Origin: Myxococcota bacterium | GTDB lineage: Bacteria; Myxococcota; XYA12-FULL-58-9; JALHOP01 | NCBI GenBank assembly: GCA_041288095.1 | Contig: JBGGMJ010000111.1 | Location: 1-32,395, forward strand | Reading direction: 5' to 3' | DNA length: 32,395 nt | Shown here: positions 8,903 to 26,958 of the stretch, piece by piece | How positions within the stretch are numbered: the first letter of the stretch is position 1 | How the letters are laid out: the number at the start of each line of letters is the position of its first letter | Translations under genes and position numbers: made by a program | Notes under the pieces: generated by a model | Databases searched by the model: none | What the model was told of the DNA's origin: nothing | The model's input: the letters and a program-made list of their open reading frames with translations, nothing else

Positions 8903-9463
8903 TCAGCGCTTGGACAGGATGATCTGACCAGGCCGATCGGTGTCGCCTCGTAAACGGCGGAGCTGCCACAGTGCTTGCGCCGTCGAAGTGCGCGCGTCGA
9001 AGCTCGAGAGCCATTCAGCGCGGGCGGCGTTGCGTCGCGCGGCGCTACGCGCGGTTTGCTCGGCGCGTGCATCGCGCTCGGTCTCGGCGGTGATGGTCCT
9101 GAGGACACGGTCGGGGTTCGCGCTGACACCGCGGATCTCGGCGTCGACGAGCGGGCGCAAGGCGCGTTGCTCGCTCTCGAGAGCTTGAGTGGCGCGGACA
9201 GAGCGTCCACGCGCGCGCGCCAAGGCGAAGACCATGTCGTTGGTGACGGGCTGCCCGCGCAAAGGGGCGAGCTGCATGTTGCCTTCGAGAGCAGCGACAT
9301 CCTCATCGGCTGCGCGCTTCTCCTCGTGGAGACCTCTGACGCGCTCACCGTAGAGGCCATCGACGCGGCTCGCGACCTCGACGAGGTTGGTGGCCATCGC
9401 TTCGATTTGAGCGCTGTTGTAGTGGCCAAAATGCCCCGGCGGCGCACGGGTAACAGAAGTCAT
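8903..9463 (-). CDS. hypothetical helical protein without signal peptide (186 aa)
   Basis: Fills the gap between flanking genes; Ala/Arg/Glu-rich helical composition; sigma28-like motif 7 nt upstream of the ATG. Confidence 0.65.
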   Translation of the reverse strand: MTSVTRAPPGHFGHYNSAQIEAMATNLVEVASRVDGLYGERVRGLHEEKRAADEDVAALEGNMQLAPLRGQPVTNDMVFALARARGRSVRATQALESEQRALRPLVDAEIRGVSANPDRVLRTITAETERDARAEQTARSAARRNAARAEWLSSFDARTSTAQALWQLRRLRGDTDRPGQIILSKR

Positions 9464-9470
9464 ACCGAGA

Positions 9471-9497
9471 GTTTCGGCAGAATTTCGTGTTTGGTGC
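9471..9497 (-). promoter_or_regulatory. sigma28/FliA-like promoter (leaderless)
   Basis: GCACC-N14-GCCGAAAC-N7-ATG on the minus strand. Confidence 0.55.
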
Positions 9498-9512
9498 GCG
9501 CCGGGGCACCGA

Positions 9513-10055
9513 TTACGGCAAGAACCGCGACAATGCAGACCATTTCGCCGAGCGACCGGCCTTGATGTTCAGCACCGCCGTGAGCGCGATGATGGCCGCG
9601 CCGGCAATGATGTTGATCCGGCCCAGGTGGCCGCTCGCCTTCAGCGCGGTGTCATTCGGCTCGCGATTCCCAACGGCCTTTTCGGCGGTGGAAACGCGTG
9701 GCTCGTTTTGGCCCCCGAGGAAGCCCAAGCCGATGGCACCAAGGCCGCTCGCGACATAGCTCGCGACCATGACGTCTTTGGCGAGCACCAGCCGGCGGGT
9801 CGTCGAATCGATCTCGCTGCCCGAGATCATCGTACGTCCCGTCAGCCAGGTGAGGCCGACGATGGCGATCCCCGCCGCATGCGCGGGGCTGAAATTCCGC
9901 CACGCCCGGTGGAGAAGCTCGCCACGCTCTTTCGTGTTGCCGACGGCTTTCATCGCAGGATGAAAAGCCATCTGACCGAAGAGCGCCCCGCCGAAACCAG
10001 CCGCTACGCCGAGATCGTGAAGCGTCAGGGCGGTCCCTGTCAGCGCCGTGTTCAT
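9513..10055 (-). CDS. hypothetical membrane protein (180 aa)
   Basis: ATG at 10055 with AAAGGGGGA RBS; about four hydrophobic segments (LHDLGVAAGFGGALFG...). Confidence 0.8.
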   Translation of the reverse strand: MNTALTGTALTLHDLGVAAGFGGALFGQMAFHPAMKAVGNTKERGELLHRAWRNFSPAHAAGIAIVGLTWLTGRTMISGSEIDSTTRRLVLAKDVMVASYVASGLGAIGLGFLGGQNEPRVSTAEKAVGNREPNDTALKASGHLGRINIIAGAAIIALTAVLNIKAGRSAKWSALSRFLP

Positions 10056-10103
10056 GTATCCCCCTTTGTTGCGCCGCGGTCGCGCGACGCGGACGACAAA
10101 GGG

Positions 10104-10120
10104 TGCAACACGCGTGCCGG
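10104..10120 (-). promoter_or_regulatory. sigma54 (-24/-12) promoter
   Basis: CCGGCACGCGTGTTGCA gives GG-N10-GC, close to TGGCACG-N4-TTGCW, 48 nt upstream of the 10055 ATG. Confidence 0.7.
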
Positions 10121-10200
10121 AAGACACACCAGCGCCCAGCGGGCCACTGCCCGTCCTGGACGCTGAAACACTTTCTCGGGCCCACCACACGAGGCAGGCC

Positions 10201-10237
10201 GCTAGAGCACGTCCGCTACAGCGGACAGGGCACTAGC
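10201..10237 (-). terminator. possible hairpin after the SWIB gene
   Basis: GTCCGCT-AC-AGCGGAC inverted repeat with outer GCTAG/CTAGC arms; no U-tract. Confidence 0.3.
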
Positions 10238-10544
10238 TCAAGTGCTTGCTGATGAGCTTGGTCATCTCGAACATCGACACCTGAGCCTTCTTGAAGATCG
10301 GCTTCAGCTTGGCGTCGGCGTTGATCATGGTCTTCTTCGCCGCGTCCTGGAGCTTGTTCTTCTTGATGTAAGCCCAGAGCTTCTTGGTCACTTCGGTGCG
10401 CGGCACCGCCGTGTTGCCGATCACTGCGGAGAGCAGGTCGCTCGGAGTCACCGGCTTCATGAAAGCGCTGTTCGCTTTCTTCCCGCCGGCCTTCTTCTTC
10501 GGAGCAGCCTTCGCCTTCTTCGCAGCTTTTTTCTTGGTTGCCAT
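10233..10544 (-). CDS. SWIB/MDM2 domain protein with Lys/Ala-rich N-terminal tail
   Basis: NSAFMKPVTPS..L..VIG....PRTEVTKKLWAYIKKNKLQD...INADAKLKPIF...VSMFEMTKLISKHL. Confidence 0.95.
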   Translation of the reverse strand: MATKKKAAKKAKAAPKKKAGGKKANSAFMKPVTPSDLLSAVIGNTAVPRTEVTKKLWAYIKKNKLQDAAKKTMINADAKLKPIFKKAQVSMFEMTKLISKHLS

Positions 10545-10770
10545 GGCGCGCTTTTACAACAAGGTCTGAGGCGCATGCCACAAGAGATCGCGCGATTCGT
10601 ACACGCGCGTACCGACATCTGATGCTTCGAGTGACGGGGCGAGGGCGGCCGGCCGGCGCTCATCTCCTACGAACCGAAGGCCCGTGAAGAGAACGCCGAC
10701 CGGCTGAACAACCCAAAATTTTGTGAGGGACGCGCCGCGTTGCACGGCGCACCCTAGGAACTGCACTATC

Positions 10771-12240
10771 TCAAGCGATCTTCTGACCCGACTTGGCGAC
10801 GCCGGCGCGCACCGCGGTAGCCGAGAGGCTCCCCGCCGCTTTCCAAACCGCCTTCGCCGGACCCCAGTTGCCTTCGCTATCCTGGGCCCGCACGTAAACC
10901 AGCTCCGCCGACTTCGCGAGCGGCGAGGTCTTGAGGCCTTCGGCGACGAACGTACCGTCGTTGCCGGTGAGCTTCTTGCCTGAGCCGGGCTTGGCGAACG
11001 GGCTCGACACGACTTCGACCGCCGCAGCGGACTTGCCGGTTAGGGCGTCCTTGGCGATCGCCGTGAGCTTACCGTTGGCGCTCATGCGCACGCTTTCGAT
11101 CTCGGGACCCGCCGACAGCTTGCGCCAGTCGGGCGAGATCGCGGCCGCGTACTGCAGGACCGGGAAGTTCTTCTTGTAGGTCTCCTCGAACTGCGCGTCC
11201 GTCTGGTGGAACGCGCGGCCGGTCTCGACCACGAAGCTCGGGATCTTCCAGCGCTCGTACGGGAGCTGGCTGGTGCCGCTCGTCGGGTAGAGCTCGATCG
11301 AAGCTTGCGGCGTGTAGCCGTTGAAGCTCGCCATCTTCTTACCGACGCGGATGAAGTGTTCCTGATCCGGCGTCGTGTTACGGCGGTCGTCCTCCGGCGG
11401 ATACAGCACGAGCTCGGAGTACGAGTGCCAGTCCATGAAGAACGCGGGCTTGGTCGTCTCGGTGTGCGCGACGATGGCCTTGTTCTCGAGCTCGCTGCCG
11501 GCCGACGGGCCACGGTAGGTGTCGCTCGAGGGCGAGCTGCTGGCACCGGCTGTGCCCCAGTTCTTCTCGGGCCAGTTACGGTTCAGGTCGGTGCCCGCGC
11601 CGTTGTTGCCCGAGGTGTTCTTGCGCTTCATCAAGTCGCCGCCACCGGTGTAGCCGCGCTCGACGACGGCGTGGCCGTCGGGGTTCATCATCGGCACGAG
11701 GTCGATGATGTGGTTGTCGAGGAGGGCGGTCGCCTCGGCGTCCTTGCCGTAGTTCTCGAGGGCCCACGCCGCGTAGCGCATGAGCACTTCGGGGTTTGCG
11801 ATCTCGCGGGCGTGCTGACCGGCGATGTGCAGAACGCGGGTCTTCTGGCCCTCGGTCGGCTGCTTCGGGCTGGTGAGCGCCATCGAGATGATGTCGCGGT
11901 CCGCTTTACCGGTCGACTTCTCGAAGGTGTCGCCGATGTCGGTCACCTTGACGAACTCGGGATACTTCTTCGCGAGCTCGAAAATGGCGGCCTTCACCTG
12001 CTCGTAGGTGCGGAAGTACTTGGGCGCCTCGCGAGCCGCCTCGGCGCCTTCTTTGCCGTGCAGAGCCTCGCGGCCCATCTTCAAGCGGCGCTCGATGACC
12101 TCGGGACGCAGACCAGGCAGCTGTGGGGCGCTCTGCATCTGAGTGCCCTTGGCCGCTTTGGCGGTCTGGGCGGGGGCTTGGGCCGGGGATTGGGCGCCGA
12201 GCGAACGTACGCCGGCCTTCGAAGCCTTGATCGTAGCCAT
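10771..12240 (-). CDS. M14 zinc carboxypeptidase (carboxypeptidase T-like), no Sec signal
   Basis: HARE, NPDG, RKN, GTDLNRNW, YRGPSAGSE, DWHSY and a catalytic Glu candidate in VVETG. ATG 12240 has an AGGAG RBS. Confidence 0.9.
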   Translation of the reverse strand: MATIKASKAGVRSLGAQSPAQAPAQTAKAAKGTQMQSAPQLPGLRPEVIERRLKMGREALHGKEGAEAAREAPKYFRTYEQVKAAIFELAKKYPEFVKVTDIGDTFEKSTGKADRDIISMALTSPKQPTEGQKTRVLHIAGQHAREIANPEVLMRYAAWALENYGKDAEATALLDNHIIDLVPMMNPDGHAVVERGYTGGGDLMKRKNTSGNNGAGTDLNRNWPEKNWGTAGASSSPSSDTYRGPSAGSELENKAIVAHTETTKPAFFMDWHSYSELVLYPPEDDRRNTTPDQEHFIRVGKKMASFNGYTPQASIELYPTSGTSQLPYERWKIPSFVVETGRAFHQTDAQFEETYKKNFPVLQYAAAISPDWRKLSAGPEIESVRMSANGKLTAIAKDALTGKSAAAVEVVSSPFAKPGSGKKLTGNDGTFVAEGLKTSPLAKSAELVYVRAQDSEGNWGPAKAVWKAAGSLSATAVRAGVAKSGQKIA

Positions 12241-12309
12241 CGAACTAACTCCTGGATGTGTTGGGGCAACCGGCCTGCGAGGAACCGCGGCGGTTTTGGG
12301 GACGTCCAC

Positions 12310-12337
12310 TAATCGGCAAGTGCATGCCCAGTGTTGC
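12310..12337 (-). promoter_or_regulatory. sigma28/FliA-like promoter of the M14 peptidase gene
   Basis: GCAAC-N15-GCCGATTA on the minus strand. Confidence 0.65.
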
Positions 12338-12399
12338 GCCTGGATCGCGTGTGATCCGCCTCTCCGACACCGCTTCAGGCATGGCACCCCCGGGGTGAC

Positions 12400-12426
12400 G
12401 CAACCCGCCGGAAACGGACTCGATAA
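12400..12426 (+). promoter_or_regulatory. sigma28/FliA-like promoter of the scramblase-like gene
   Basis: GCAAC-N14-CTCGATAA. Confidence 0.55.
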
Positions 12427-12462
12427 CGAGCGTCTCGGGCCAAACCTTTAGAGGGGCATCAC

Positions 12463-13419
12463 GTGTCCAACAACGACGTCGCAATCTCCCGCCTGGCACA
12501 AGCCGGCACCCCCCAATTCACGGCCCTCGAAGCGCTCGACCAAAGCGGCGACGGCAATAACGCCATCAGCGTCGAGGAAATCCAGCGCCTGTCGTGCTCG
12601 GCGCCCCCCGCGGGGCTCACCTCGGCCCAGGTGCGCGCGCTACAAACCACGTTCGTCAACGTCGTTGATCCGGGCGTCGGCGCCGGTGTCCGCTTGAACG
12701 GATGCGCGCCCAGCCGCGTGTTGCCGCGGTCCGGCGAAATTCGCGAGAGCAACGGCACCGCGGTCCGCAAATACCTGGGCGTCGGCGCGGCCTTCCCCAA
12801 CCTCTACGTCACCGACACCAGCGGTAACGACCTGAACACCATGTCGCGTCGCTGGGCGAGCAACGGCGCCCGCGACTTCTTCCAGAACGTCTTCGGCGTC
12901 ACCCTGACCCTGCGCGAGGGCTCGGACACCAGCAATCCGAACGCGGTCATCGCCGAGGCGCACCCACGCATCATCGACACCAAGAGCTTCACCAACAACT
13001 TCCGCACGAACATCGACATTCTCGATGGCAGCGGCCAGCGCATCGGCACCATCCGCCAGACCTGGGAGAGCGTCGGCGGCTCCATCCTCCAGAACATGGT
13101 GCTCGGCCGCAGCATCTGGACGACCTACGAGATCCTCGACGCCAACGAGCAAGTCCTCGCCCGGTCCGCCAAGACGGAGTTCTTCGGTGCCCGTATGAAC
13201 GTCATCGGCAACGACGGCCAACCCGCCGCCGACCTGCAACGCAACTTCCTGCAGTCGTTGGTACGCGACCGCTGGCACTTCGTCGCCAACGACGGCCAGC
13301 AGATCGACCGGCGCGTGCTCGCGTTCATGGCCGCCTACAAGACCATGGCGGACATCCAGCGCACCGACGCGGCGGCGCGCTCGTTCTGGGGCGAGGTCAT
13401 CAAGCAGCTCGCCGATTAA
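12463..13419 (+). CDS. LURP-one/phospholipid scramblase (Tubby-C-like) domain protein with N-terminal EF-hand-like segment
   Basis: Repeated beta-hairpins IDILDGSGQRIGTIRQ, YEILDANEQVLAR and MNVIGNDGQPAADLQR, closing helix IDRRVLAFMAAY; GTG start with GAGGGG RBS. Confidence 0.7.
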   Translation: MSNNDVAISRLAQAGTPQFTALEALDQSGDGNNAISVEEIQRLSCSAPPAGLTSAQVRALQTTFVNVVDPGVGAGVRLNGCAPSRVLPRSGEIRESNGTAVRKYLGVGAAFPNLYVTDTSGNDLNTMSRRWASNGARDFFQNVFGVTLTLREGSDTSNPNAVIAEAHPRIIDTKSFTNNFRTNIDILDGSGQRIGTIRQTWESVGGSILQNMVLGRSIWTTYEILDANEQVLARSAKTEFFGARMNVIGNDGQPAADLQRNFLQSLVRDRWHFVANDGQQIDRRVLAFMAAYKTMADIQRTDAAARSFWGEVIKQLAD

Positions 13420-13461
13420 CGAAAGTTGCGGCGTTGACGAGGGGCGGCCTACCATCGCGGC

Positions 13462-13926
13462 ATGAAGACAATCACCCCCCTGGTCATTGCTCTGGCGTTC
13501 GCTGCTTGTGGTGACAGCGACGACGACAACACGCCGCTGATCTCCGGTAGTGTTACCGGTACCTACGGTGACGACACGTTCACCCTCCGCAATGGTGTGC
13601 TCGGTAAGACCAGCGGTGGCTCCGACGTCGTCATTCTCGGGACCGACGCCATGACCTGTGCGAGTCCGAAGGCACCGGCGCCTCCGGAGGGCAACTTCGC
13701 CTCGATCGCCGTCGGGGTGCTCGCCGTCGGCACCTACGGTGGCGTCCTGGTGCAGGTGTACGAGAACCACGACGACTTCAGCGGCGCCGGCTCCTCGACC
13801 GGCACCTTTACGATCGACGACCTCACCGACACCACGATGAGTGCCAGCGTGAGCTTTTCCGCGACGGTCGACGGCAAGGCGCTGGCCCTGAACGGCGACT
13901 TCGAAGTCGAGCGCTGCGCGAACTAG
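13462..13926 (+). CDS. hypothetical lipoprotein
   Basis: Lipobox LAFAAC followed by GDSDDD; beta-rich body ending in LNGDFEVERC. Confidence 0.85.
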   Translation: MKTITPLVIALAFAACGDSDDDNTPLISGSVTGTYGDDTFTLRNGVLGKTSGGSDVVILGTDAMTCASPKAPAPPEGNFASIAVGVLAVGTYGGVLVQVYENHDDFSGAGSSTGTFTIDDLTDTTMSASVSFSATVDGKALALNGDFEVERCAN

Positions 13927-13944
13927 CGAGCGCTTGCTCCGGCT

Positions 13945-14487
13945 CTACTGGAGCTGGCACTCGGCGCGCACGGTGTCGCGCATGAAGAACGAGGCCAAGT
14001 GCGCCCCGTGACTCTTCATCTCCGCGAAAGCGTACCTAGTGTGACCCTTCTCGTCGAGCTCCAGCTTGAGCTCCGCGGTCGAGCCGTAAAAGCCACTGCT
14101 CCACTCCACCGTGAGCATCTTGCCGCCCCGCTTCGTCGTCGCGACGTAGTGCTCGACGCGTTTCGTGTCCTGCGGTGGGTAGGCATGGCCAAAACGCCGC
14201 GCGACCAGGTCGCGGCCATCGCGCGTGAACTCGAGGATCAGAACCCCGCTTTGCTCGGGCGTCCCGATATTCTCCGAGAGGCTCAGGGTCGAGACGCCGT
14301 CCTGGGTCGCATACGACACCTGGCACTTCCCGTCCTTGGAGAGCTTCGACATCACTGACAGGTGCGGATCGTTCGCGACGCGCGCGTACTCTGCCCCGAA
14401 CGTGAAGCCCTTGAGACGAAAGAGCTCGGGCGTGCCGGTATCGGGAGCGGTGAGCAGGGTAACGGCGAGGAGCATGAGCGTCGGCAT
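13945..14487 (-). CDS. hypothetical secreted protein
   Basis: MPTLMLLAVTLLTAP signal-like start; start is uncertain (14475-14517). Confidence 0.7.
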   Translation of the reverse strand: MPTLMLLAVTLLTAPDTGTPELFRLKGFTFGAEYARVANDPHLSVMSKLSKDGKCQVSYATQDGVSTLSLSENIGTPEQSGVLILEFTRDGRDLVARRFGHAYPPQDTKRVEHYVATTKRGGKMLTVEWSSGFYGSTAELKLELDEKGHTRYAFAEMKSHGAHLASFFMRDTVRAECQLQ

Positions 14488-14521
14488 TGTCGGTGGCATG
14501 GTAGCCCGCCCGACCATGGAC

Positions 14522-14549
14522 GCAACATGCGCGCGGCGCGTGCCGATAT
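14522..14549 (+). promoter_or_regulatory. sigma28/FliA-like promoter of the S8 protease gene
   Basis: GCAAC-N15-GCCGATAT. Confidence 0.65.
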
Positions 14550-14609
14550 GGGACGCGTCTCGGGACCCTTCCTTCCCTCGAGGCTCAACTCCAACAGTTG
14601 GCCTTTCTC

Positions 14610-15998
14610 ATGAGCGAGCTCACCGTTCGTGCCGTCACTGGTACGCTTCTCCCGCCTTCTCCGGCGCCAACTCCGGCCGTAGACACCCCCGCGCTCGCCG
14701 TCCGCTCTAGCGACAGCATCGACGAGAACCCGCGCGATTACATCGTGTTTGGCGACGTCGCGAAGCTCACGCTGCGCGCGCCGACCATGCACGGGATGCA
14801 GTTCCGTGGCGGCCTCTCCGGCAGCGAGCCTTGGAGCACGGCCCGCATGACCGCCGCCGAGGCGGCCGAGCTCGTCGCGCAGGGCTTTCAGGTCCACGAA
14901 GACCGGCCCACGGCCGTTGCGAAAACCACCCCGGCAACCGGTCCAGTCAGCGATGCGTTGGCGAACATTCACCAGGCGCAGGATCTGAACGCCCTCGGGC
15001 CCGAGTGGCAGGGCGAAGGCGGCTTGTTCATCAGCCTCGACAGCGGCGTGGCGCCCCATCGTGACCTGCCGCCTATCGAGCGCTTCGACAACGTCTTCAC
15101 CGAGTCTCCGGAAGATCCGCCCGCCGATCCCACACATCACGGCACGCACACGACCGGCTCCGCCATTGGTCGCGGCGATCCCGCACAGGGTGGTGTTCGC
15201 GGCGCGGCACCCCGCGCGCGCCTCATGGCGGTCCAGGTGCTCGACGACACCGGCCGGGGCACCGAGTCGTCGACGCTGCGCGGTCTCGAGCGCGCCATCG
15301 AGTGGGCTCGGCAACACGACGGCTTCGTGGTCATCAACGTCTCGCTCAGCGGCTCCGCGATGGTTCACCGCGACCGCGATCCGCTGGTGCAGCTCATCGA
15401 GCGGGCGACGCGCGAGCACGGCATCTTGTTCTCGATCGCGGCCGGCAACGAAGGCCCGTTCCCCGGCTACCTTGGTCGACTCGGGCTCGCTCCGAGCGCC
15501 ATCACCGTCGCCGCCATGGATCACAACGGCACCGTCGACACGACGGACGACCGCATCGCCGTCTTCTCGTCGCGCGGCAACGGCTGGGAGAACAAACCGA
15601 ACATCGCGGCACGCGGCATGGCCGTGCGCTCGACCATCCCCGGTGACGCCTATAGCGCGCTCAACGGCACCTCGATGGGCGCCGGCCTCAACGGCGGTGG
15701 CGTGCTCGCGCTCGGGCAGGGCTTGCTCGCGATGTACCGGCGCGGCGAGCTCCGCGAAGATCCACGCGATCTGGTGCGCCGCAACGAGTTCCAACGCATC
15801 GTCGCCGAAGCATCGTTCGACAACCCACGTATCGCGAGCGACCGCGAAGGCTCGGGCGATCTGCGTTTGATGAATGCGCGCGAGATGTTCTTGCAGCGCT
15901 TCGCGACCGCGAACACCCAAGGGCCGGCCCCCTATTTCCCGCGCCACCGCATGCCGCCCGCGGCGCTGCCGGCCGCCGGTTACCAACCACCGTTCTGA
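14610..15998 (+). CDS. S8 subtilisin-family serine protease, no Sec signal
   Basis: Catalytic triad motifs SLDSG, HGTHTTG and GTSMG; oxyanion AAGNEG; FSSRG, KPNIAARG. Confidence 0.9.
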   Translation: MSELTVRAVTGTLLPPSPAPTPAVDTPALAVRSSDSIDENPRDYIVFGDVAKLTLRAPTMHGMQFRGGLSGSEPWSTARMTAAEAAELVAQGFQVHEDRPTAVAKTTPATGPVSDALANIHQAQDLNALGPEWQGEGGLFISLDSGVAPHRDLPPIERFDNVFTESPEDPPADPTHHGTHTTGSAIGRGDPAQGGVRGAAPRARLMAVQVLDDTGRGTESSTLRGLERAIEWARQHDGFVVINVSLSGSAMVHRDRDPLVQLIERATREHGILFSIAAGNEGPFPGYLGRLGLAPSAITVAAMDHNGTVDTTDDRIAVFSSRGNGWENKPNIAARGMAVRSTIPGDAYSALNGTSMGAGLNGGGVLALGQGLLAMYRRGELREDPRDLVRRNEFQRIVAEASFDNPRIASDREGSGDLRLMNAREMFLQRFATANTQGPAPYFPRHRMPPAALPAAGYQPPF

Positions 15999-16015
15999 GT
16001 CTGTTGGGAGCTCCT

Positions 16016-16426
16016 ATGTGCAAGGCAATCCTTCGTCTCTTCTCCAATCCGACCATCACATGGGACCAACGCCGTGAGATGGCGCGAGCGCTGGCCAAGC
16101 CGGAGGCGCCGTCGCAGTGGCCGAAGTCCATCGGCGAATGGCAGCAGCGCACCGAGAAGTTGATCGCGCGCGGCCTCGACACGACACCGCGCGATCTCAT
16201 CGAAGACTTTCGCGAGCTCAGCATCGTCGAAGCAGGCGCTCAAGCCGCCTGGGGCTTCACCGAAGAACGCTATCGCGACATGTTGATCGGCGGCGGCGAC
16301 AACCCCGCCCTGGTGTCAGCGCGTGCCGCGTTGGGCGAAGCTGGTATCTTGAAGGTAGCCGCGAACGCTGCGCTGCGCGTCCTCTTGGACCGCGCCATGA
16401 AAGAGAACTGCGGCGAAGGAAAGTAG
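16016..16426 (+). CDS. hypothetical helical protein (136 aa)
   Basis: GGGAG RBS before ATG 16016; its stop overlaps the next start (TAGTG). Confidence 0.65.
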   Translation: MCKAILRLFSNPTITWDQRREMARALAKPEAPSQWPKSIGEWQQRTEKLIARGLDTTPRDLIEDFRELSIVEAGAQAAWGFTEERYRDMLIGGGDNPALVSARAALGEAGILKVAANAALRVLLDRAMKENCGEGK

Positions 16427-18018: not shown

Positions 18019-18063
18019 CCGCTCTTGCCAATCCGTCGTTCTCCTTTCAAGGTCACCGCCATC

Positions 18064-19353: not shown

Positions 19354-19363
19354 GCGACGTCGG

Positions 19364-20608
19364 TTAGCGACTCCGCCGCGGCGGTGCGGCGCCTGCATCC
19401 CGCTGCTGCGGATGCGGTCGTCGTTCGTTCTGCTGCTGCGGTCGTCGTTCGTTCTGCTGCTGCGGTCGTCGTTCGTTCTGCTGCTGCGGTCGTCGTTCGT
19501 TCTGCTGCTGCGGGCGCCGGTCGTTCTGCTGCTGCGGGCGCCGGTCGTTCTGCTGCTGCGGGCGCCGGTCGTTCTGCTGCTGCGGGCGCCGGTCGTTCTG
19601 TTGCTGCGGGCGCCGGTCGTTGTGCTGCTGCGGCCGTCGGTCGTTCTGCTGCTGCGGCCCGGGTCGACGCTCGCCGCGCGGCGCTGTCTGCTGTTGCGGA
19701 CCTCGCCCATCGCGCAGGGGTGGAACTGCCTGAGGAGGGCGCTTGCCGCGAGGCGCCTGGTGCATCGGTCCGCCCTGGTTGCGGCGACGCTGCTGCTCGT
19801 CCTTGCGCGCGTCGTCGATGACGTCCATCACGCCGCTGACGTGGGCCTGTTTCGCCGAGCGAACGTACTTCCCGGTGAGGCGGGTGTCCGCTTTCAGCTC
19901 GCCGCGCTCGTACAGACTCCAGAGCTCTTCGGCGTAGGGCGGGCTCGTCCACCCGCGCACGAAGCGCGCGACGAAGCGATGCAAGTTGTCGACGTCGCGC
20001 ATCAAGATCTTGCGTGCGTTCTGATTACCGGCGGCGTCGATCGCCTGCGGAAAGTCGATGATGACAGGTCCGTCCCCGGCCATGAGCACGTTGAACTCGG
20101 ATAAGTCGCCGTGGACGACGCCGGCGTGGAGCATGCGCACGACGTCGGCGAGCAGCACCTCGAAGATCAGCATGGCATCGTCCGGCGCGAACTGCAGCTC
20201 GCCCAGACGCCTCGCGGGGCTGCCGTCGGCGTCACACACTAGCTCCATGAGGAGCACGCCCTCGACGAACCAATAGGGCTCCGGCACCCGCACACCCGCC
20301 GCGCTCAGCCGATAGATCATGTCGACTTCGGTCGACTTCCAGGCGGCTTCGTCACGCGAGCGCCCGTACGCGGTCCGCTTGCTCATGGCGCGCTGATCGC
20401 GCGAATTCCGAACCCGGCGTCCCTCGGTGTACTCAGCCTTGTTCTTGAAGCTGCGTTCCTTCGCGTCCTTGTAGACCTTGGCGACGCACTGACGACCTTC
20501 GGAGATGACGAGATAGACGAGCGCCTCTTTGCCGCTCATGAGCGGTCGAACGACCTCATCCACGATTCCGTGATCGACGAGAGGCGCGAAGGCCTCTGGC
20601 AAACGCAT
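19364..20608 (-). CDS. RIO1-family atypical kinase/ATPase (PA4780-like) with repetitive C-terminal tail
   Basis: LMSGKEALVY, AKVYK, AAGVRVPEP, LLMELV, VHGDLSEFNVL, IIDFPQA, RDVDNL. Confidence 0.92.
   Translation of the reverse strand: MRLPEAFAPLVDHGIVDEVVRPLMSGKEALVYLVISEGRQCVAKVYKDAKERSFKNKAEYTEGRRVRNSRDQRAMSKRTAYGRSRDEAAWKSTEVDMIYRLSAAGVRVPEPYWFVEGVLLMELVCDADGSPARRLGELQFAPDDAMLIFEVLLADVVRMLHAGVVHGDLSEFNVLMAGDGPVIIDFPQAIDAAGNQNARKILMRDVDNLHRFVARFVRGWTSPPYAEELWSLYERGELKADTRLTGKYVRSAKQAHVSGVMDVIDDARKDEQQRRRNQGGPMHQAPRGKRPPQAVPPLRDGRGPQQQTAPRGERRPGPQQQNDRRPQQHNDRRPQQQNDRRPQQQNDRRPQQQNDRRPQQQNDRRPQQQNERRPQQQNERRPQQQNERRPQQQNERRPHPQQRDAGAAPPRRSR
19418..19657 (-). repeat. 10 x 24-bp coding tandem repeat (PQQQN[D/E]RR)
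   Basis: Four identical CCGCAGCAGCAGAACGAACGACGA units plus six units of the CCGCAGCAGCAGAACGACCGGCGC type, in frame in the RIO1 gene. Confidence 0.95.
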
Positions 20609-20702
20609 GGCGTCCCTTTATCCGCCCTAGCGGAAGCTGGACAAGCCGCGCGTTCGTAAAGCCGCGGAAAATGACCATTTGGCGGGTCCGCCCGGCCGTC
20701 AC

Positions 20703-20730
20703 GCACCGACAGCCTCGGAACCGTCGATAC
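20703..20730 (+). promoter_or_regulatory. sigma28/FliA-like promoter (leaderless)
   Basis: GCACC-N15-GTCGATAC-N8-ATG. Confidence 0.6.
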
Positions 20731-20738
20731 CGTCCTAA

Positions 20739-22436
20739 ATGCGCGTGGTGGAAGGATCTTCGTCGCTGCCAGGCTCGCCCGGGATAACCCCGGCGTTGCC
20801 GCCTGCCCAGCCGCTTGCTGGGGGCGAGCCCGGTCGCGCACGCCCCGAGCCGCTCGAGCCCCGCGTCCGGCGCGGCGTCCCCTCCGAAACGCCCGGCGAA
20901 GCGGCTTGGTTGCAAGCGCTGCGCCCGCACGCCGACGCGTTCCTGGCACATTGGCAACAGTCGCCTGACGCACAGCGCTGTCTCGCCATCATCGTCGCTT
21001 TGCGACCTTACCTCGGTGAGGCACAGGCAGCTTGGCTGCTCGCCGAGATCGTCTTGGACGGCCCCCCTGCGCGTAGTGGCACCCCGGCGCCGGCCGCGCC
21101 CATGAAGCTCACGACACTGCTCGGGCTGCTCGAGCGCTCCGACCCGCGACCCGTGCGCGCGCCATTTCACCGCCTGCTGGTCGCGAATCTCGGGACGTCG
21201 CCGCTGCTCGAGGAAGCGCGGGCGGCGTTGCCGACCTTGCCGCTCGATGTGCTCCTGCGGCTGTCGTTTCATCTCGAATCGACCCACCCCTTGCGCCGCG
21301 AGCTGTCCGAGGAAGCGCAGCGTCGATGCGCCGCGGTTGCCGGCTCGACCGATGATGCCACACGGCCCGAGTGGTTCGCGGAGCACCTCCTGCCGACCTT
21401 CGACAGAGGCGGGGAGCTGCAAGGCATGCGTGTCGCTGCCCTCGCGTCCACCGACGCCGAGAGCTTGGCACGCGACTATCTCGAACGCGGCCGACGCATC
21501 CTTGGTGACGAGTTTGTCGCTAAAGCGGACGAGCTGCGCCGGCTGTCGCGTGGCGCCTCCTCGGTGAGCGGCAATCTCTCTCGCGACGCCATGCGCCGTG
21601 AGCTCGCCGACAAGCTCGCGAAGGTTGTCGAGGCGCGAATCGCGAGCTCGCCATTGCGCCGCGATGTGGCGTTGGTGGCGGCGTCGCACATACCGGTGCA
21701 AGCAGCCGACGCCTATGGGCGCGCTCGACTCTTCGAGCAGCTCGCAACCACGCTGCAGCTCACCCATGGCGAGGTCGCTCGTGTGATGATCGAGCTCCGC
21801 GACCGCGATGCCGACGCTCGTCCCGAGCTGCGCAAGCGCCTCGAGCGTGTCGCCGAGTTGCCGGCAGAGCCGATCTTTCCGTTGCAGCCGGGCGACCGCT
21901 TCAGCGCCACGACGTTTTCGAACCCGCTCCTGCCCTCGGAAACCTCGCACGAGCTGGGTCACGCCTACGAAGCCGCGTGCCCCGAGGTGCTGTCCGCCGC
22001 GGCAGCCATGCGCGGCATGATCGCCATCGGTCCCCCGCGGCCGCTCAACGACCTCGCGGTGATTCACTCGGTGGCGTGCGCCAGCGGTGTCGACGGCATG
22101 CACGAGAAGCTGCTGCGTACGCTCGCGACCCGCGAAACCTGGCCTATTCTCGACTCCGCCAAGGCGGTGCGCACACTGCTCGCCGGCCATGGTCTCGAGT
22201 CCGTCATCGACGGCGTGCTCGCGAGCCAAGAGTGGGCAACGTTGCGGCCGTATGCAGCCAACGAGATCGCGCTACCGGTCGCGGCGCATCCTTATCTGGG
22301 AAAGATTTGCCCTGACGGCTCGACCGAGATCGTCTCGGTCGGTTTCGAGAAGCTCACGAGTGGCGAGGATCTCCTGAACGCCTATCTCGATTGCCCGGAG
22401 CACGTGTTGTTCACGCTTGGGTGTCTGCCGTCCTGA
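20739..22436 (+). CDS. hypothetical protein with C-terminal HExxH zincin-like domain
   Basis: Pro-rich N-terminus, helical middle, HELGH at 21948-21962 and downstream PYLGK...STEIVSVGFE. Confidence 0.7.
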   Translation: MRVVEGSSSLPGSPGITPALPPAQPLAGGEPGRARPEPLEPRVRRGVPSETPGEAAWLQALRPHADAFLAHWQQSPDAQRCLAIIVALRPYLGEAQAAWLLAEIVLDGPPARSGTPAPAAPMKLTTLLGLLERSDPRPVRAPFHRLLVANLGTSPLLEEARAALPTLPLDVLLRLSFHLESTHPLRRELSEEAQRRCAAVAGSTDDATRPEWFAEHLLPTFDRGGELQGMRVAALASTDAESLARDYLERGRRILGDEFVAKADELRRLSRGASSVSGNLSRDAMRRELADKLAKVVEARIASSPLRRDVALVAASHIPVQAADAYGRARLFEQLATTLQLTHGEVARVMIELRDRDADARPELRKRLERVAELPAEPIFPLQPGDRFSATTFSNPLLPSETSHELGHAYEAACPEVLSAAAAMRGMIAIGPPRPLNDLAVIHSVACASGVDGMHEKLLRTLATRETWPILDSAKAVRTLLAGHGLESVIDGVLASQEWATLRPYAANEIALPVAAHPYLGKICPDGSTEIVSVGFEKLTSGEDLLNAYLDCPEHVLFTLGCLPS

Positions 22437-22481
22437 CGGGGTGTCAGAACCCACACGCAGCCCGTGCAGGTATGCACGAGC

Positions 22482-23039
22482 ATGACCCGTCTATCCGACG
22501 CCCGAGCTGATCGCCTGTGGTCCGACACTCAAGCACAGCCGCGGACGTTTGCGCAGCGAGCCCAATCGCACGTGCGGCGGGGGGATACGGCATCGGGAGG
22601 GACGTCGACGTCCGATGCGGCTGGTCAGGACCGCGTCGCGAACGACCGCATCCTGCGCGCGGAAGCGCCCAGCACGGTTGCCGCGGGCTTGCCCATCAGT
22701 GCCGAGGAGCCGCCGGCGATCCAGACGGAAGCGCCACTCCCGCCGCCGATCTACTCGAAGGGCCCGCACTACTATTGCCCGGCAGGGTTCGAGGGGACGG
22801 CGCTCGATCCGCTACGACTCGCCGAGGAGTTCATGGCGCTCCCGGATGAGCTGCGCGGCAACTACTTCAACGCCTTGTGCCAGTACAACCCGAGCCTGGG
22901 GAGCGCGCTCAATTCCACGCTGCGCGACATCCGCGGCGCCGACGTGCAGAAGAACTGGCTCACGACGATGGACAACAGGCAGGGCAGCACCTTCAGCGCC
23001 GAAGGCCTGCCGCCCTGGTTGCTGTCGCACTTCACCTAG
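22482..23039 (+). CDS. hypothetical protein with disordered N-terminal half
   Basis: ORF downstream of 20739-22436 on the same strand; folded-looking C-terminal region of about 95 aa; start is uncertain. Confidence 0.55.
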   Translation: MTRLSDARADRLWSDTQAQPRTFAQRAQSHVRRGDTASGGTSTSDAAGQDRVANDRILRAEAPSTVAAGLPISAEEPPAIQTEAPLPPPIYSKGPHYYCPAGFEGTALDPLRLAEEFMALPDELRGNYFNALCQYNPSLGSALNSTLRDIRGADVQKNWLTTMDNRQGSTFSAEGLPPWLLSHFT

Positions 23040-23689
23040 CGTTGCGGTAACGCCTGCCGGAGAAACGCCGAGAGCTTCTTCGTTGCGATGTTGGTGTTGC
23101 GCCAGAGCTGGAGCAGCGCGGGGAGCTTCCAAGGGGCGCTGAGGAGCGCCCACGCGACTTTGCAATAGTCGACGTTCTGGTCGGGGCCCACGAGCTTGTT
23201 GAAATCGAACGGCAAGTCCTGGTCGGCGGTGTCGGAAATGGCACGGATGATCGTGCAGTTGACCCCTCGGTTGCGACAGATGGCCCGGATGAACCCCGAC
23301 TCGTTCTCGACGACGTCGGCGCCCGTCTGCTCGCGCAAACGCTGCCTATCGGCCACCGTCACTAGGACGTGCTCCGTGGTCGCAAAGCGGACCGGTTTGC
23401 CGCCGAGAGCAATCAAGGCCCCCGCGAGGCCCGGATCCGAGGTGTCGAAGACGATGTCGCCTACCGCCAGATCGGGGCGCAGCCCGCCGGTGACGCCCGT
23501 CGTGATCACGTGACCCGGCCGACCTCCCGCGAGAACCCGTAGGATAGCGGCCTCGGCATTCTTCCGACCCATGCCGCTGGTGCGGACGTCGATATCCGTG
23601 CGGCCCTTGGTGTCGCGAAGGAAAGGCCGAGACTCCTGCTCGAGCGCGAACAGGACGACCGTCTTATGGGGTAACGAAGGCACAACCAT
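23036..23689 (-). CDS. nucleoside phosphorylase/MTA-SAH nucleosidase family (HpnG-like)
   Basis: FALEQE, SGMG, TGVTGGLRPDLAVGDIV, GADVVENES, IRAISD..DQDLP. Confidence 0.82.
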   Translation of the reverse strand: MVVPSLPHKTVVLFALEQESRPFLRDTKGRTDIDVRTSGMGRKNAEAAILRVLAGGRPGHVITTGVTGGLRPDLAVGDIVFDTSDPGLAGALIALGGKPVRFATTEHVLVTVADRQRLREQTGADVVENESGFIRAICRNRGVNCTIIRAISDTADQDLPFDFNKLVGPDQNVDYCKVAWALLSAPWKLPALLQLWRNTNIATKKLSAFLRQALPQR

Positions 23690-23768
23690 CGAATTCACTC
23701 TGGGGGCGGAGTGTATCGATGCCTGCGAATCGAATGGTGCGCCGGGAGGGGGTGACGCCCCCGGCACC

Positions 23769-24572
23769 TCAGAAGTAATTGACCGATCGGCCCCTAGCCT
23801 CGGTCCGCGCCGCCACCGCGCTGCCTATGAACGTCCAGAAGTCATTGCGACCGTCCTCGTCGAGCTGGAACTCGACCGCGAGGCCGGGCTGTTCGGCATC
23901 GCTCACACAGCGGATCACGCGGCACGGAATCGGAAACTCGGCCTTGGTCTTGGGGTGAACGACGCGCAACGTCAGGCGCTCGCCCGCGGCGGTGACGATG
24001 CTCGTTGCGATGAACATGCCGCCCTGGGAGAGGTCGCGGGTGTGCATCGACACGAGGTCTTCGATGCTGTCGAAATACGCCTTGACCTCCACGAGGACCT
24101 CGAAGCGTTGGTAGCGTCGGCGCTCCGCTTTCGCGGACTCCTTGCGGCGGGGCAGGGCCGGCGGTTGCACGACTGGCGGTGATTCGACCGCGGGCGCGAC
24201 CGAGACCTCTTCTTTTTCTTTCTCCGCCAACTCGGGGTGTCGACGCTCGATCTCGCGCACGAAGCGATGCCACGCGTCGCGCTCATTGGGGCCGTTACCG
24301 TAAAAGGCCACCCCCACCCCGGAGGGTCGCTTGGGGTCACTCGAGCGGCGCACCGAGGTGATGCGTCCGAGCAGCTCGAGGGCGCCGCCGTCGAAGGGCA
24401 GGTCGATGCCGAGACGCACGAACTCGCCATCTTTCGGTCGTGCGTCCGTGCGCACGAAAACCCCGCTCATCCCGACGTCTGCGGTTTCTAGGGATAGCTT
24501 GTCTTTGCCGATGAGCAGCTCGACGGGGATGCAGATCTGGTAGCGGCGATACCGTCTCCCGTTAGCTTTCAT
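23769..24572 (-). CDS. tandem PilZ-domain protein
   Basis: Two RxxxR...DxSxxG-type units: RRYRRY..DVGMSGVFV and RRRYQRF..DLSQGGMFI; AAGGAG RBS before ATG 24572. Confidence 0.88.
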   Translation of the reverse strand: MKANGRRYRRYQICIPVELLIGKDKLSLETADVGMSGVFVRTDARPKDGEFVRLGIDLPFDGGALELLGRITSVRRSSDPKRPSGVGVAFYGNGPNERDAWHRFVREIERRHPELAEKEKEEVSVAPAVESPPVVQPPALPRRKESAKAERRRYQRFEVLVEVKAYFDSIEDLVSMHTRDLSQGGMFIATSIVTAAGERLTLRVVHPKTKAEFPIPCRVIRCVSDAEQPGLAVEFQLDEDGRNDFWTFIGSAVAARTEARGRSVNYF

Positions 24573-24669
24573 GCTCCTTGGCAGCGTACCGCCGTCACGT
24601 CGTTGCGTCCACACGTGGTGGCAGGCGTTGACCGAGCATGGCTCTCTATGACGAGGTGTGAGGACTCCA

Positions 24670-26121
24670 ATGAAACTCAAGCTCGCTCTGCCGTCATGCT
24701 GTGTCCTGCTCGTCGCCTGTTTGTGGGTTAGCGCCGCCCGCGCCTTTCCCGTCGATGACTTCGAGCGCACCGGCATCCGGCGCCTGAAGTTCCAGCAGGA
24801 CGCGCTCAACGGTCTCCACAGAGGACCCAAGCTGGTTCCAGGCGCTCGCTGGCCAGCCGCCAACATCAAGCTGCGCATGCGCGAACAGGGTCGTAACTTC
24901 GAGCTGACGACCGCGACGCCCAAGGATCCCGTCCTTCAGCCAGCCCTCGAAAAGGTGCTCAAGCAGTGGTCGTGGCACAAGTACGACGTCGCCATTCTCG
25001 ACATCACCGATCCGGCGCACCCGCGCTACGCAGCCGTCAACGAGCAAGTGGGACAGACGCCCGGCAGTGTCGCCAAGGTCCTCGTTGCATCGGGCATGTT
25101 CGACCAGCTCAAGCAGCGTTTTCCCAACGACATCGCGGCCCGCGAGAAGGTGCTCAGAGAGACGATCGTCACCGCCGACGATTGGGCGATGAAGGACTCG
25201 CACGACCTTCCCTTCATCACCGGAGCCAACCTCGACAAGAGCACCAGCCGCCGCGTCGTCATCGGCGACAAGCTCAGCTTGTGGGAGTGGATGGACGGCG
25301 CGCTATCGGCGAGCAACAACTCGGCGGCGGCGATGCTGTGGCGCGAGGCCACGTTGATGAAGCTCTTGGGCGCGGAGTATCCGCCCCCCAAGGTCACGGC
25401 TGACCTGTGGAAGCAGCTCGGCCGCGATGCGCTCACCAATGCTTCCTTCGAGGTCGTCAGCAAGCCGCTGTCCGATGCGGGACTCGACCCTGAGATCCTC
25501 CGCTTGCGCCTCTACTTCACCAAGGGCGCGGGCAAATACATCCGCTCGCAAACCAGCAGCGCTACCGCGTTGTCGCTCGTGCAGTGGCTGTTGCGCGTCG
25601 AACAGGGTCGCATGGTCGATGAGTGGTCGAGCCTCGAGCTCAAGAAGATGATGTATCTGACGCGCCGCCGCGTCCGTTATCTGCACACGCACAAGCTCGA
25701 CAACTTCGCGGCGTTCTTCAAGAGCGGCAGCCTCTTCAGGTTCAAGCCCGAGACCACCGAGCGCGTGCAGTACGAGGGTGACCTCCAGAACATTCTCAAC
25801 TCACTCATCGAGATCGACACTACGCCGCCGCCGGCCGAAGCCCTCGCCGCCGTCACCGGACCGGCTGCCGACCTCGCGGCCAAGACGCCCAGCGTGAACG
25901 CGGCAGGCAAGCCCTACGTCTATCTCGTTGCCGTCATGTCGAACGAGCTCAAGCGCAACGCCGCCGAGGATCACGCCCGCCTCGCGGAAGCGATCCACGC
26001 GTTGATCACCGCGACGAAAGACGCGCCGGCGGTGATCCCGACCTCACCCGACGCCCTGAAGGTGCCGGACGTGAAGGAGGGGGCTGAAGACAAGGACGAA
26101 GGAGCGGACTCGCCGCAGTGA
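24670..26121 (+). CDS. secreted serine hydrolase, beta-lactamase/DD-peptidase fold
   Basis: Signal peptide; SxxK (GSVAK), SxN (SNN) and KSG motifs in the expected order. Confidence 0.8.
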   Translation: MKLKLALPSCCVLLVACLWVSAARAFPVDDFERTGIRRLKFQQDALNGLHRGPKLVPGARWPAANIKLRMREQGRNFELTTATPKDPVLQPALEKVLKQWSWHKYDVAILDITDPAHPRYAAVNEQVGQTPGSVAKVLVASGMFDQLKQRFPNDIAAREKVLRETIVTADDWAMKDSHDLPFITGANLDKSTSRRVVIGDKLSLWEWMDGALSASNNSAAAMLWREATLMKLLGAEYPPPKVTADLWKQLGRDALTNASFEVVSKPLSDAGLDPEILRLRLYFTKGAGKYIRSQTSSATALSLVQWLLRVEQGRMVDEWSSLELKKMMYLTRRRVRYLHTHKLDNFAAFFKSGSLFRFKPETTERVQYEGDLQNILNSLIEIDTTPPPAEALAAVTGPAADLAAKTPSVNAAGKPYVYLVAVMSNELKRNAAEDHARLAEAIHALITATKDAPAVIPTSPDALKVPDVKEGAEDKDEGADSPQ

Positions 26122-26149
26122 GCCTGTGCGCTAAAGCGGTCGGGTGAGG

Positions 26150-26884
26150 CTAGCGATGAAAGCGGCGCCCCTCGAGGTCCTTGTGTCGGCTGCCGAGCAC
26201 GAAGAGATCCACGACATCGAGCGGAATCGACAAGACGTGCAGGACGTCGCCAATCAGCGGCGGCGAGTAGCCCTCGCGACGTCGCGTCGACCAGTAGTGG
26301 CTCAAGTCCTGGCCTAGAGTGCGAACATAGCCTGCGTCCGCCTTCTCTTGCTCGAGCGCGAAGATGAGCTTCTGTCCCACGGAGGCGACGTCGGGAACGT
26401 CACGCCAGTGATGCATCAGATCGGTGATGAGGCCGACCTCGAACGACGAGATCGCCGCGCCAGTCTGGAGGTACTTCAGAGTTTCACCGCCCGTGGCCGT
26501 GAAACCGTTCCAGCCACTTCGAGAGGTGCCTGCTTCGATTGAGCGCGAGAGCGCTTGAGCAAGCGCCACCGCGAGCTCTTGCCGAGTGCGCGTTAGGGGC
26601 GGCACCTCGGCGATGGCCTTGGTGCTGGCGCCTTCGAGCACGTCGTTGCCGCTGCCGGCGCGGTCGTAGCCGCCGCGGTGGTTCCGCGCGGCCGCGTAGA
26701 TCTCGAGGAGCGACGCCTGCGACTTGCCGGGCAGGAGACGCTCAATGGTGGCCCGTTGAGCGGCCGGCACCTTGTCGAGCTGGACGACGTCATCGAGCCG
26801 CGATTGGACCTGCGCGGCGTCAATGCCGAGCACGCCCTGCGCAATGTCCGCGACCAGCTTCTGAGGACTCGCAATCTTATCCAT
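26150..26884 (-). CDS. hypothetical protein without signal peptide (244 aa)
   Basis: GGAGG RBS; helical composition; hydrophobic segment near the C-terminus. Confidence 0.75.
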   Translation of the reverse strand: MDKIASPQKLVADIAQGVLGIDAAQVQSRLDDVVQLDKVPAAQRATIERLLPGKSQASLLEIYAAARNHRGGYDRAGSGNDVLEGASTKAIAEVPPLTRTRQELAVALAQALSRSIEAGTSRSGWNGFTATGGETLKYLQTGAAISSFEVGLITDLMHHWRDVPDVASVGQKLIFALEQEKADAGYVRTLGQDLSHYWSTRRREGYSPPLIGDVLHVLSIPLDVVDLFVLGSRHKDLEGRRFHR

Positions 26885-26931
26885 ACGCCGCCTCCGCTCA
26901 CAGCACCCAAGAGTATCTGGGTTCTGGTGCC

Positions 26932-26958
26932 TTATCGGGCGACGGGGGACCGTGTTGT
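26932..26958 (-). promoter_or_regulatory. sigma28/FliA-like promoter
   Basis: ACAAC-N14-CCCGATAA on the minus strand; the -35 overlaps a hairpin. Confidence 0.5.

Follow-up and report, generated by a model that had tools for sequence, protein, structure and literature searches.

A proposed variant sigma-28 promoter motif upstream of type III secretion genes and dispersed signal-less hydrolase genes in a Myxococcota genome

Myxococcus xanthus carries a type III secretion system that is needleless (T3SS*), encoded by mxan_2434-2464, which belongs to the 'Myxo' group of Abby and Rocha 2012 (PMC3459982, PMC10433427, PMC12075869). As reported in the accessible text of several papers, this system is needed for prey lysis (PMC10433427, PMC12075869, PMC12428579, PMC10849154, PMC11509652), and in the same text reviews and a 2025 study call its effectors unknown (PMC10433427, PMC12075869). 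The 2025 Kil/T3SS* paper nowhere uses the terms 'FliA', 'sigma' or 'SctF', and a literature search that covered few subscription papers found no description of a promoter, a sigma factor or substrates of T3SS*. Since the effectors are unknown, a promoter motif shared by the machine and its possible cargo yields a testable list of candidates. We analyzed such a motif on contig JBGGMJ010000111.1 of the Myxococcota bacterium assembly GCA_041288095.1. The window is this entire contig (C111; 32,395 nucleotides) of the genome under study, G000, which comprises 5.85 Mb in 212 contigs with 66% GC and is about 90% complete; related genomes are labelled G001 and so on, and families f9, f16 and f20. An original prediction, made from the letters of the window alone, had proposed that six dispersed genes behind a bipartite motif form a sigma-28-like regulon of type III-like substrates. 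We propose, with a probability of about 0.6, that a T3SS*-linked sigma-28 factor drives the machine together with several hundred likely substrates that would be exported onto or into prey.

The G000 locus shares with the M. xanthus T3SS* the components SctRSTUV, Q, N, L, O, J, an I-like protein and TPR chaperones, and both have neither flagellin nor a dedicated secretin. For M. xanthus no regulator, promoter or effector is described in the accessible text, whereas here a sigma factor, a promoter and about 370 candidate genes are proposed; the G000 locus also lies over three contigs, and its lineage is outside the cultured myxobacterial families. The Pseudomonas aeruginosa sigma-28 regulon (TCTAAAG-N14-GCCGATAA; PMC12784957, accessible text) has the same -10 octamer, a 14-base spacer, a FliA/WhiG-like sigma factor and, as predicted here, late type III substrates. 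In contrast, the -35 box in G000 is CGCAAC, the corresponding helix is KSWTSR, flagellin has no match, targets number in the hundreds, and FlgM is found beside an orphan FliA only. The FliA attack-phase regulon of Bdellovibrio bacteriovorus (TTAAG-N16-CCGATA; PMC3627812, accessible text) is likewise a case of sigma-28 as a large regulator in a predator, with proteases and unknown genes among its targets, but it keeps the flagellar -35 box and flagellar genes, whereas here the box is changed, the machine is non-flagellar and signal peptides are strongly depleted. The regulon proposed here is a sigma-28 variant that operates in the manner of HrpL and, as the two are defined, belongs to neither. 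In Pseudomonas syringae, HrpL is a sigma factor whose gene accompanies the T3SS; it activates the apparatus as well as scattered effector genes, and the hrp box serves to find effectors. The proposed regulon would likewise pair one alternative sigma factor, encoded with a T3SS, with apparatus genes and dispersed effector genes. However, HrpL is an extracytoplasmic function (ECF) sigma with another box and a complete, plant-aimed injectisome, whereas here a group 3 sigma is paired with a secretin-less machine and a regulon roughly ten times as large.

The candidate promoter motif in the genome and the window

All six sites of the original prediction lie at the places, and have the boxes and spacers, that it gave, with a C before the first box in five of the six. 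A pattern covering them matches the window at those six places only. Because the pattern was derived from these window sites, the other 211 contigs provide an independent test. Their 393,872 intergenic bases contained 168 matches, compared to 6.65 (maximum, 12) in 20 third-order Markov simulations, and the excess over background that the prediction depended on is thus present outside the window. With a matrix refined on intergenic matches, the genome-wide consensus is CGCAAC-N14/15-GCCGATAA. The matrix matches G000 at 476 places at 14 bits or more, of which 376 are intergenic; four wrong-spacer pairs gave 12 to 24 intergenic matches, so about 1 in 20 sites may be false. In a scan of spacer lengths, 14 and 15 gave 124 and 55 intergenic matches, respectively, whereas every other spacer from 8 to 22 gave 0 to 10. 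Between tandem genes, 183 sites were oriented with the genes and 6 against them. Genes in G000 (5070) were called with a hexamer model, and their starts are approximate. A site stands before 387 of them, spread over 132 contigs, and in 368 cases no more than 150 nt away. The predicted regulon is thereby refined to about 370 genes, apparatus genes included.

The octamer GCCGATAA is the commonest 8-mer among the 376 sites and also the consensus -10 octamer. Together with the 14-15 spacer it agrees with a sigma-28 promoter, but CGCAAC takes the place of the -35 box TAAA/TCTAAAG. The canonical TAAA(G) pattern had 10 matches in G000, one of them intergenic, and hence no such regulon was found; no second -35 class emerged among 264 leftover intergenic -10 sites. 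ATG triplets, in-frame or not, peak 7 to 11 nt past the -10 box. Leaderless transcripts would start at this distance, provided that the box ends at -8, its position in the fliC promoter of P. aeruginosa (PMC12784957, accessible text).

The window sites (matrix score in bits) and the genes behind them are as follows.

9471..9497, minus: promoter motif GCACC-N14-GCCGAAAC, 17.2 bits; ATG 7 nt downstream, likely leaderless
8903..9463, minus: helical protein of 186 aa without a Pfam family or signal peptide; candidate substrate
12310..12337, minus: promoter motif GCAAC-N15-GCCGATTA, 16.7 bits; before the G002 homolog, boxes kept and spacer changed
10771..12240, minus: 489-aa M14 carboxypeptidase, a carboxypeptidase T relative (Pfam, catalytic motifs); S/T/P/A-rich start
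12400..12426, plus: promoter motif GCAAC-N14-CTCGATAA, 23.2 bits; kept in G001 and G003, spacer changed
12463..13419, plus: 318-aa protein, predicted tubby/LOR/scramblase-type barrel; N-terminus not unusually S/T/P-rich
14522..14549, plus: promoter motif GCAAC-N15-GCCGATAT, 21.5 bits; kept in G001, G002 and G003, spacer changed
14610..15998, plus: 462-aa S8 subtilase (Pfam, D/H/S motifs); P/T/S-rich start, no signal peptide
20703..20730, plus: promoter motif GCACC-N15-GTCGATAC, 18.4 bits; ATG 8 nt downstream, likely leaderless
20739..22436, plus: 565-aa protein with S/P-rich start; HELGH (HExxH) at residue 404, no Pfam family
23713..23740, minus: seventh site GCACC-N15-ATCGATAC, absent from the original prediction; 15.6 bits, intergenic
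23036..23689, minus: gene of the phosphorylase/nucleosidase family behind the seventh site; N-terminus unremarkable, not an evident substrate
26932..26958, minus: promoter motif ACAAC-N14-CCCGATAA, 18.7 bits
26150..26884, minus: protein of 244 aa lacking a Pfam family and a signal peptide; start not S/T/P-rich

The six sites stand 7, 69, 36, 60, 8 and 47 nt before the starts of genes 9463, 12240, 12463, 14610, 20739 and 26884, respectively. Three of them are comparable in congeners, with both boxes kept and the spacer changed; the other three genes had no usable match there. The seventh site may be a weak true site or a chance match, and an intragenic match at 1342-1369 (14.7 bits) was taken to be fortuitous. 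The 26884 site is immediately preceded by the gene for a teneurin-like NHL/YD-shell (RHS) protein of at least 1780 aa (26996-32395, minus strand), which is cut by the contig end. The window also encodes a NamZ muramidase (1197-2378), a RIO kinase (19364-20608) and, on the minus strand, an ECF sigma with a DUF6596 extension (2812-4095) beside a small gene, the two within 2475-4095.

The T3SS* locus and its sigma factor

The original prediction called for a FliA/WhiG-type sigma factor beside type III export genes elsewhere in the genome. In G000, a FliA-like gene lies inside an export cluster on C92, beside sctI-like, sctJ, FliG-like, sctL, sctN, sctO, FliK-like, sctQ, fliO, sctR, sctS, sctT and TPR chaperone genes. 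The locus is split over C92, C31 (sctV) and C41 (sctU/FlhB). The predicted sigma type and the predicted type III-like export are supported by this arrangement, and the apparatus is refined to a non-flagellar T3SS* rather than a flagellum. SctR, SctS, SctQ and SctV passed their NCBIfam cut-offs, and SctT, FliO, SctO/FliJ, SctN, SctL and SctJ matched below them; SctV scored 851 bits as SctV, over the cut-off, versus 695 bits as FlhA, under it. The parts of a Myxo-type T3SS* (SctRSTUV, SctQ, SctN/L/O and SctJ) are thus present. Flagellin had no match in G000, about 90% complete, and flagellar export was rejected as the route. Motif sites stand before the sigma operon (16.3 bits), before the sctI-like gene (13.7 bits) and about 400 nt before sctV (17.3 bits). 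At related loci, which are kin and not independent events, the motif precedes the sigma operon in 21 of 30 (wrong spacer, 0; opposite strand, 0) and the sctI-like gene in 23 of 38 (wrong spacer, 3; opposite strand, 0).

G000 has two FliA-like genes (C92 and C127), both under the TIGR02479 cut-off. The T3SS*-linked one scored 163.7 bits (cut-off, 189.6) with TIGR02479 still its best family (E of 5e-48), and its best PDB matches were FliA and WhiG; judged by sequence, it is a divergent FliA/WhiG subfamily. Its homologs come mostly from metagenome-assembled genomes of Myxococcota or Deltaproteobacteria, with some Bdellovibrionales. In a tree whose rows were chosen by helix motif, with small-genome rows left out, a 100/99 branch separates the 40 T3SS*-linked sigma rows from four other FliA rows. 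The -35-reading helix is KSW[T/A]SR in T3SS*-linked sigmas and KSWTCR in six of six small genomes, compared to ESRVSQ in solved FliA. When aligned with the solved FliA chains of 9wsm, which we take to be P. aeruginosa sigma-28, the sole Ser-Gln pair four apart in that helix falls on S271 and R275. In the fliC register, CGCAAC stands in place of CTAAAG. The accessible text on P. aeruginosa sigma-28 describes S224 and Q228 as reading TCTAAAG, 14 bases before GCCGATAA (PMC12784957). In our proposal, the conserved region 2 of the sigma would read GCCGATAA, and Arg in place of the Gln that reads TCTAAAG would shift the -35 box to CGCAAC. Very probably, the FliA-like sigma of the T3SS* cluster reads the motif.

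That another sigma factor reads it, either an ECF sigma or the orphan FliA paired with FlgM on C127, appears very unlikely. GCAAC-N16-CGAT does resemble ECF-type boxes, an ECF sigma (HrpL) runs a T3SS regulon in Pseudomonas, G000 has 36 matches to sigma-70 region 2, and one genome with sites (G006) has no detected FliA. However, the -10 box matches the complete sigma-28 octamer, placed as in fliC, and the motif precedes the operon of the T3SS* sigma itself at most of the loci counted above. In a comparison with described ECF group motifs that covered the main text of an ECF reclassification preprint, no GCAAC, GTAAC or CGAT string was found, a result that speaks neither for nor against an ECF reader. 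The existence of an orphan fliA-flgM pair also speaks for another reader, but the orphan FliA (G000:C127:21759-22853, followed by flgM) has the canonical helix, SRVCQ, and searches showed no TAAAG-type regulon. Its orthologs (at least 44% identity) were found in only 7 of 39 genomes searched and not in G004, G075, G080, G008 or the five f16 genomes, all of which carry the motif; since its distribution does not track the motif, the orphan was rejected as its reader. The pair sits in a genome with neither a flagellin match nor a TAAAG-type regulon. The two genomes of the order without the T3SS* sigma (G024 and G070) have its operon running off a contig end.

Across the phylum, 183 of 301 genomes yielded a T3SS*-type sigma. 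Motif counts across genomes were compared to a reversed pattern and, because that control is too lenient for composition, to wrong spacers on 61 hand-picked genomes. Among 20 genomes of the order, 19 had two or more times as many strict matches as wrong-spacer matches, and in the genus the numbers were 90 to 140 versus 7 to 15. In family f20, where none of 42 genomes has the sigma, there were 27 matches versus 20 for the reversed pattern (summed by hand), and seven f9 genomes without the sigma, picked for high counts, had 93 matches versus 71 with wrong spacers. The T3SS* gene order is homologous in four f16 genomes. One genome of this family, G113 (9.0 Mb, complete), has the T3SS* cluster in one piece and, with a looser pattern, 22 matches versus 6 reversed, four of them in the cluster; ten others lie before plausible gene starts, as judged by eye, and eight look intragenic. 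The genes led by the motif in G113 include ones with S/T/P-rich starts, LysM-GH19, LysM-CHAP, an SLT protein with a peptidoglycan-binding domain and a protease with FTP and PepSY domains, three of them encoding peptidoglycan enzymes; two LysM proteins start with the LysM domain and have no disordered leader. A GH19 lysozyme, LlpM, is known from M. xanthus (PMC9098779, accessible text). Relatives of 1.3 to 2 Mb (G049, G054, G122, G116, G087 and G020; loci L156-L161) keep the T3SS*-type sigma and parts of the locus, with a site before a T3SS* gene at three of the six loci. They have 6 to 7 sigma-70 proteins each, several of them ECF-sized, which also counts toward another reader, and there are hints that they are host- or prey-dependent.

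Signal-less products of the motif-led genes

By definition, type III substrates have no Sec/Tat signal and a disordered, S/T/P-rich stretch in the N-terminal 20 to 50 residues. No Sec/Tat-like signal and an S/T/P-rich start are found for the motif-led set, not for every member. As controls we used the 2259 genes with an upstream gap of at least 60 nt; gene starts were called blind to the motif, and signal peptides were judged by a rough hydropathy rule, not SignalP. Signal-like N-termini were present in 25 of 364 motif-led genes versus 562 of 2259 controls (P of 3.5e-17), and three or more membrane helices in 2 of 364 versus 115 of 2259. After signal-like genes were removed from both sets, the S+T+P fraction of residues 2-26 was 0.242 versus 0.185 (P of 3e-21), an excess gone by residue 60. 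N-terminal composition predicted regulon membership with an area under the curve of 0.78, compared to 0.60 for the middle and C terminus. For paralogous hydrolases, a signal was seen in 0 of 23 genes led by the motif and in 6 of 22 others (P of 0.009). The predicted enrichment before signal-less genes with S/T/P-rich starts is thus found genome-wide. These statistics suggest that the N-termini of motif-led proteins are likely type III export signals, and most motif-led targets are probably T3SS* substrates.

Pfam was scanned for 170 of 308 eligible motif-led proteins (at least 15 bits and 100 aa, chosen by clustering on fetched stretches; one of 4157 aa was dropped). A family was found in 53, about 35 of them hydrolytic by hand count: peptidases M1, M4, M20, M28, M64, S8, S9, S41 and trypsin-like, lipases, nucleases, phosphatases, an amylase and GH97. 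Four peptidoglycan enzymes are in the G000 cargo (an amidase, VanY and two SLT proteins with peptidoglycan-binding domains). Other families are serpins, Kelch, Fic, a Ser/Thr kinase, oxidoreductases, desaturases and one OmpA protein. At G000:C69:10176-19568, four genes for M4 (thermolysin-like) proteases stand in tandem; each has a signal-less type III-like start, and the first has a site 161 nt upstream. The giant 4157-aa protein (G000:C190:4574-17047) has a 20-bit site 66 nt upstream.

In the window, the same rule recognises a signal-like hydrophobic start in none of the six, in agreement with the original prediction. Its description of S/T/P/A-rich starts applies to four of them (S/T/P share of residues 2-26, 0.28, 0.28, 0.48 and 0.44) but not to 12463 (0.20) or 26884 (0.08), compared to a control mean of 0.185. 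The M14 and S8 assignments stood, by Pfam and catalytic motifs. The scramblase-like fold is modestly supported: the 12463 protein, with six homologs only, has a Tubby_C_like match under the cut-off, and the best Foldseek match of its model is At5g01750 (1zxu; E of 4.5e-4, TM of 0.44 by target), consistent with a tubby/LOR/scramblase-type fold. The proposed metalloprotease, 20739, has HELGH and a weak Atlas lead (Peptidase_M90, 0.83); with matches below 0.9 and TM below 0.5, no family was assigned. The S8 subtilase has two motif-led paralogs elsewhere in G000. Of 111 homologs of the M14 carboxypeptidase with a Met start, one has a signal-like N-terminus. Some M14 homologs (among proteins P0013-P0106) labelled Thermoleophilia or Gaiellales have signal-less S/T/P-rich leaders, often in several copies per contig, and may represent a second lineage exporting M14-type enzymes by a type III route.

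In the proposed mechanism, the sigma would switch on the T3SS* machine together with several hundred signal-less proteins, and T3SS* would export these onto prey cells or into them. The lysis phenotype of T3SS* in M. xanthus leads us, by analogy, to infer that the target would be the prey cell, lysed and digested. A rather improbable alternative is that the sigma is a global life-stage regulator, comparable to FliA in the Bdellovibrio attack phase, which co-induces T3SS* and fast-evolving genes whose products stay inside or leave by vesicles or lysis, the S/T/P-rich ends being disordered leaders or propeptides. Of 140 attack-phase promoters in Bdellovibrio, 92 carry a FliA-type motif, and the genes concerned include proteases and uncharacterised ones (PMC3627812, accessible text). 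The regulon here has no dedicated secretin beside it, T3SS*-independent hydrolase secretion is reported (PMC10433427, accessible text), and the regulon includes apparently cytoplasmic enzymes and a Flp-pilin-like gene (G000:C23:7871-8122), which has, 58 nt upstream, a site of 20 bits and may connect the regulon with the Tad/Kil pilus; the genome carries a Tad locus at C27:37537-47602. However, S8, M4, M14, M28 and peptidoglycan hydrolases normally carry Sec signals, which they lack here, and the cytoplasm offers peptidoglycan enzymes nothing to act on. The depletion of membrane proteins noted above and a composition bias limited to the first 50 residues, with similar starts among the T3SS* cluster genes, also speak against such a regulator.

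It also seems unlikely, to a similar degree, that the regulon and type III export are as proposed but act on something other than bacterial prey, either a eukaryote such as a protist or fungus or the envelope of the producing cell itself. The cargo does have serpins, Kelch, Fic, a Ser/Thr kinase and a tubby/LOR-type fold, the sigma is kept in relatives of 1.3 to 2 Mb, a size suggesting host dependence, and without a secretin export might end in the periplasm. The peptidoglycan enzymes, four in G000 and three in G113, argue for bacteria instead, and so do a Tad locus and secretin in the genome and the tie of T3SS* to bacterial prey lysis in the accessible M. xanthus literature.

Several observations weigh against export of the regulon onto or into prey. 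The proposal gives the cargo no step across the outer membrane: no secretin lies by the T3SS* genes, and the three secretin genes lie, judged from their neighbours, among pilus, Tad and type II genes. Abby and Rocha doubted extracellular secretion by such systems (PMC3459982), and myxobacteria secrete many hydrolases independently of Kil/T3SS* (PMC10433427), both in accessible text. The footprint is missing at 9 of 30 sigma-operon loci and 15 of 38 sctI-like loci. G070 has T3SS* genes but 18 matches versus 17 in the control, the sigma is present in G053, G096 and G101 yet matches versus control were 13/19, 19/13 and 19/13, and G006 has a site before a T3SS* gene and 22 versus 7 matches, yet two queries found no FliA. 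Of the scanned motif-led proteins, 117 of 170 have no Pfam family, some matches look cytoplasmic or Sec-routed (an aminotransferase, an AAA ATPase, desaturases and the OmpA protein), and a site is missing before several chaperone-linked genes whose starts are type III-like. Simple in-house rules supplied the gene starts and the signal peptides.

A candidate needle gene and the meaning of the regulon

The first gene of the sigma operon (C92:37386-37943; L008:17386-17943) encodes a protein with a conserved C-terminal helix that is common to seven paralogs and 2934 protein clusters. Six of the paralogs matched at E below 1e-4 and one at 0.14, and the paralogs lie on C210, C46, C188, C82, C181 and C10. 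A TPR gene follows the first gene in 29 of 31 loci. The injectisome E-F-G gene order resembles this succession of small helical gene, subunit and TPR chaperone. Needle-family matches were weak and all under the cut-off, in 3 of 18 homologs (best E of 0.0034) and in 2 of 30 (E of 0.014), with an Atlas score of 0.88; SctF matched in 0 of 60 further relatives. PDB sequence searches and Foldseek gave nothing, VIA-align gave generic helices only, with Z under 7, and the model is one long helix with a pLDDT of 52. The small gene upstream had no chaperone match. That this gene encodes a hidden needle subunit is a tentative reading, which we would expect to fail more often than hold. Paralogs adjoining TPR chaperone genes (C10:80372-83033, C181:33054-36441 and C210:20756-23494) suggest, from gene context, possible unrecognised filament or translocator operons.

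A broader reading, which we consider doubtful, is that a dedicated sigma-28 subfamily of Myxococcota was inherited with the flagellum-derived T3SS*, that its changed -35 box marks the whole substrate set, that the targets are bacteria, and that the first regulon gene and its seven paralogs are divergent needle or filament subunits. If they are needle subunits, the machine would not be needleless. If this joint reading is true, there would be a dozen or two substrates in a G113-like genome and about 350 in the genus studied here, a number among the largest for known type III arsenals.

For the T3SS*-linked sigma-28 regulon as we propose it, a promoter that stands before T3SS* operons and before dispersed genes for signal-less wall-lytic enzymes and proteases provides a short list of effector candidates. 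If the proposal is true, the flagellar late-gene circuit would have been retained from flagellum to injectisome with its -35 contact re-coded, and the regulon would hold hundreds of uncharacterised candidate antibacterial enzymes.

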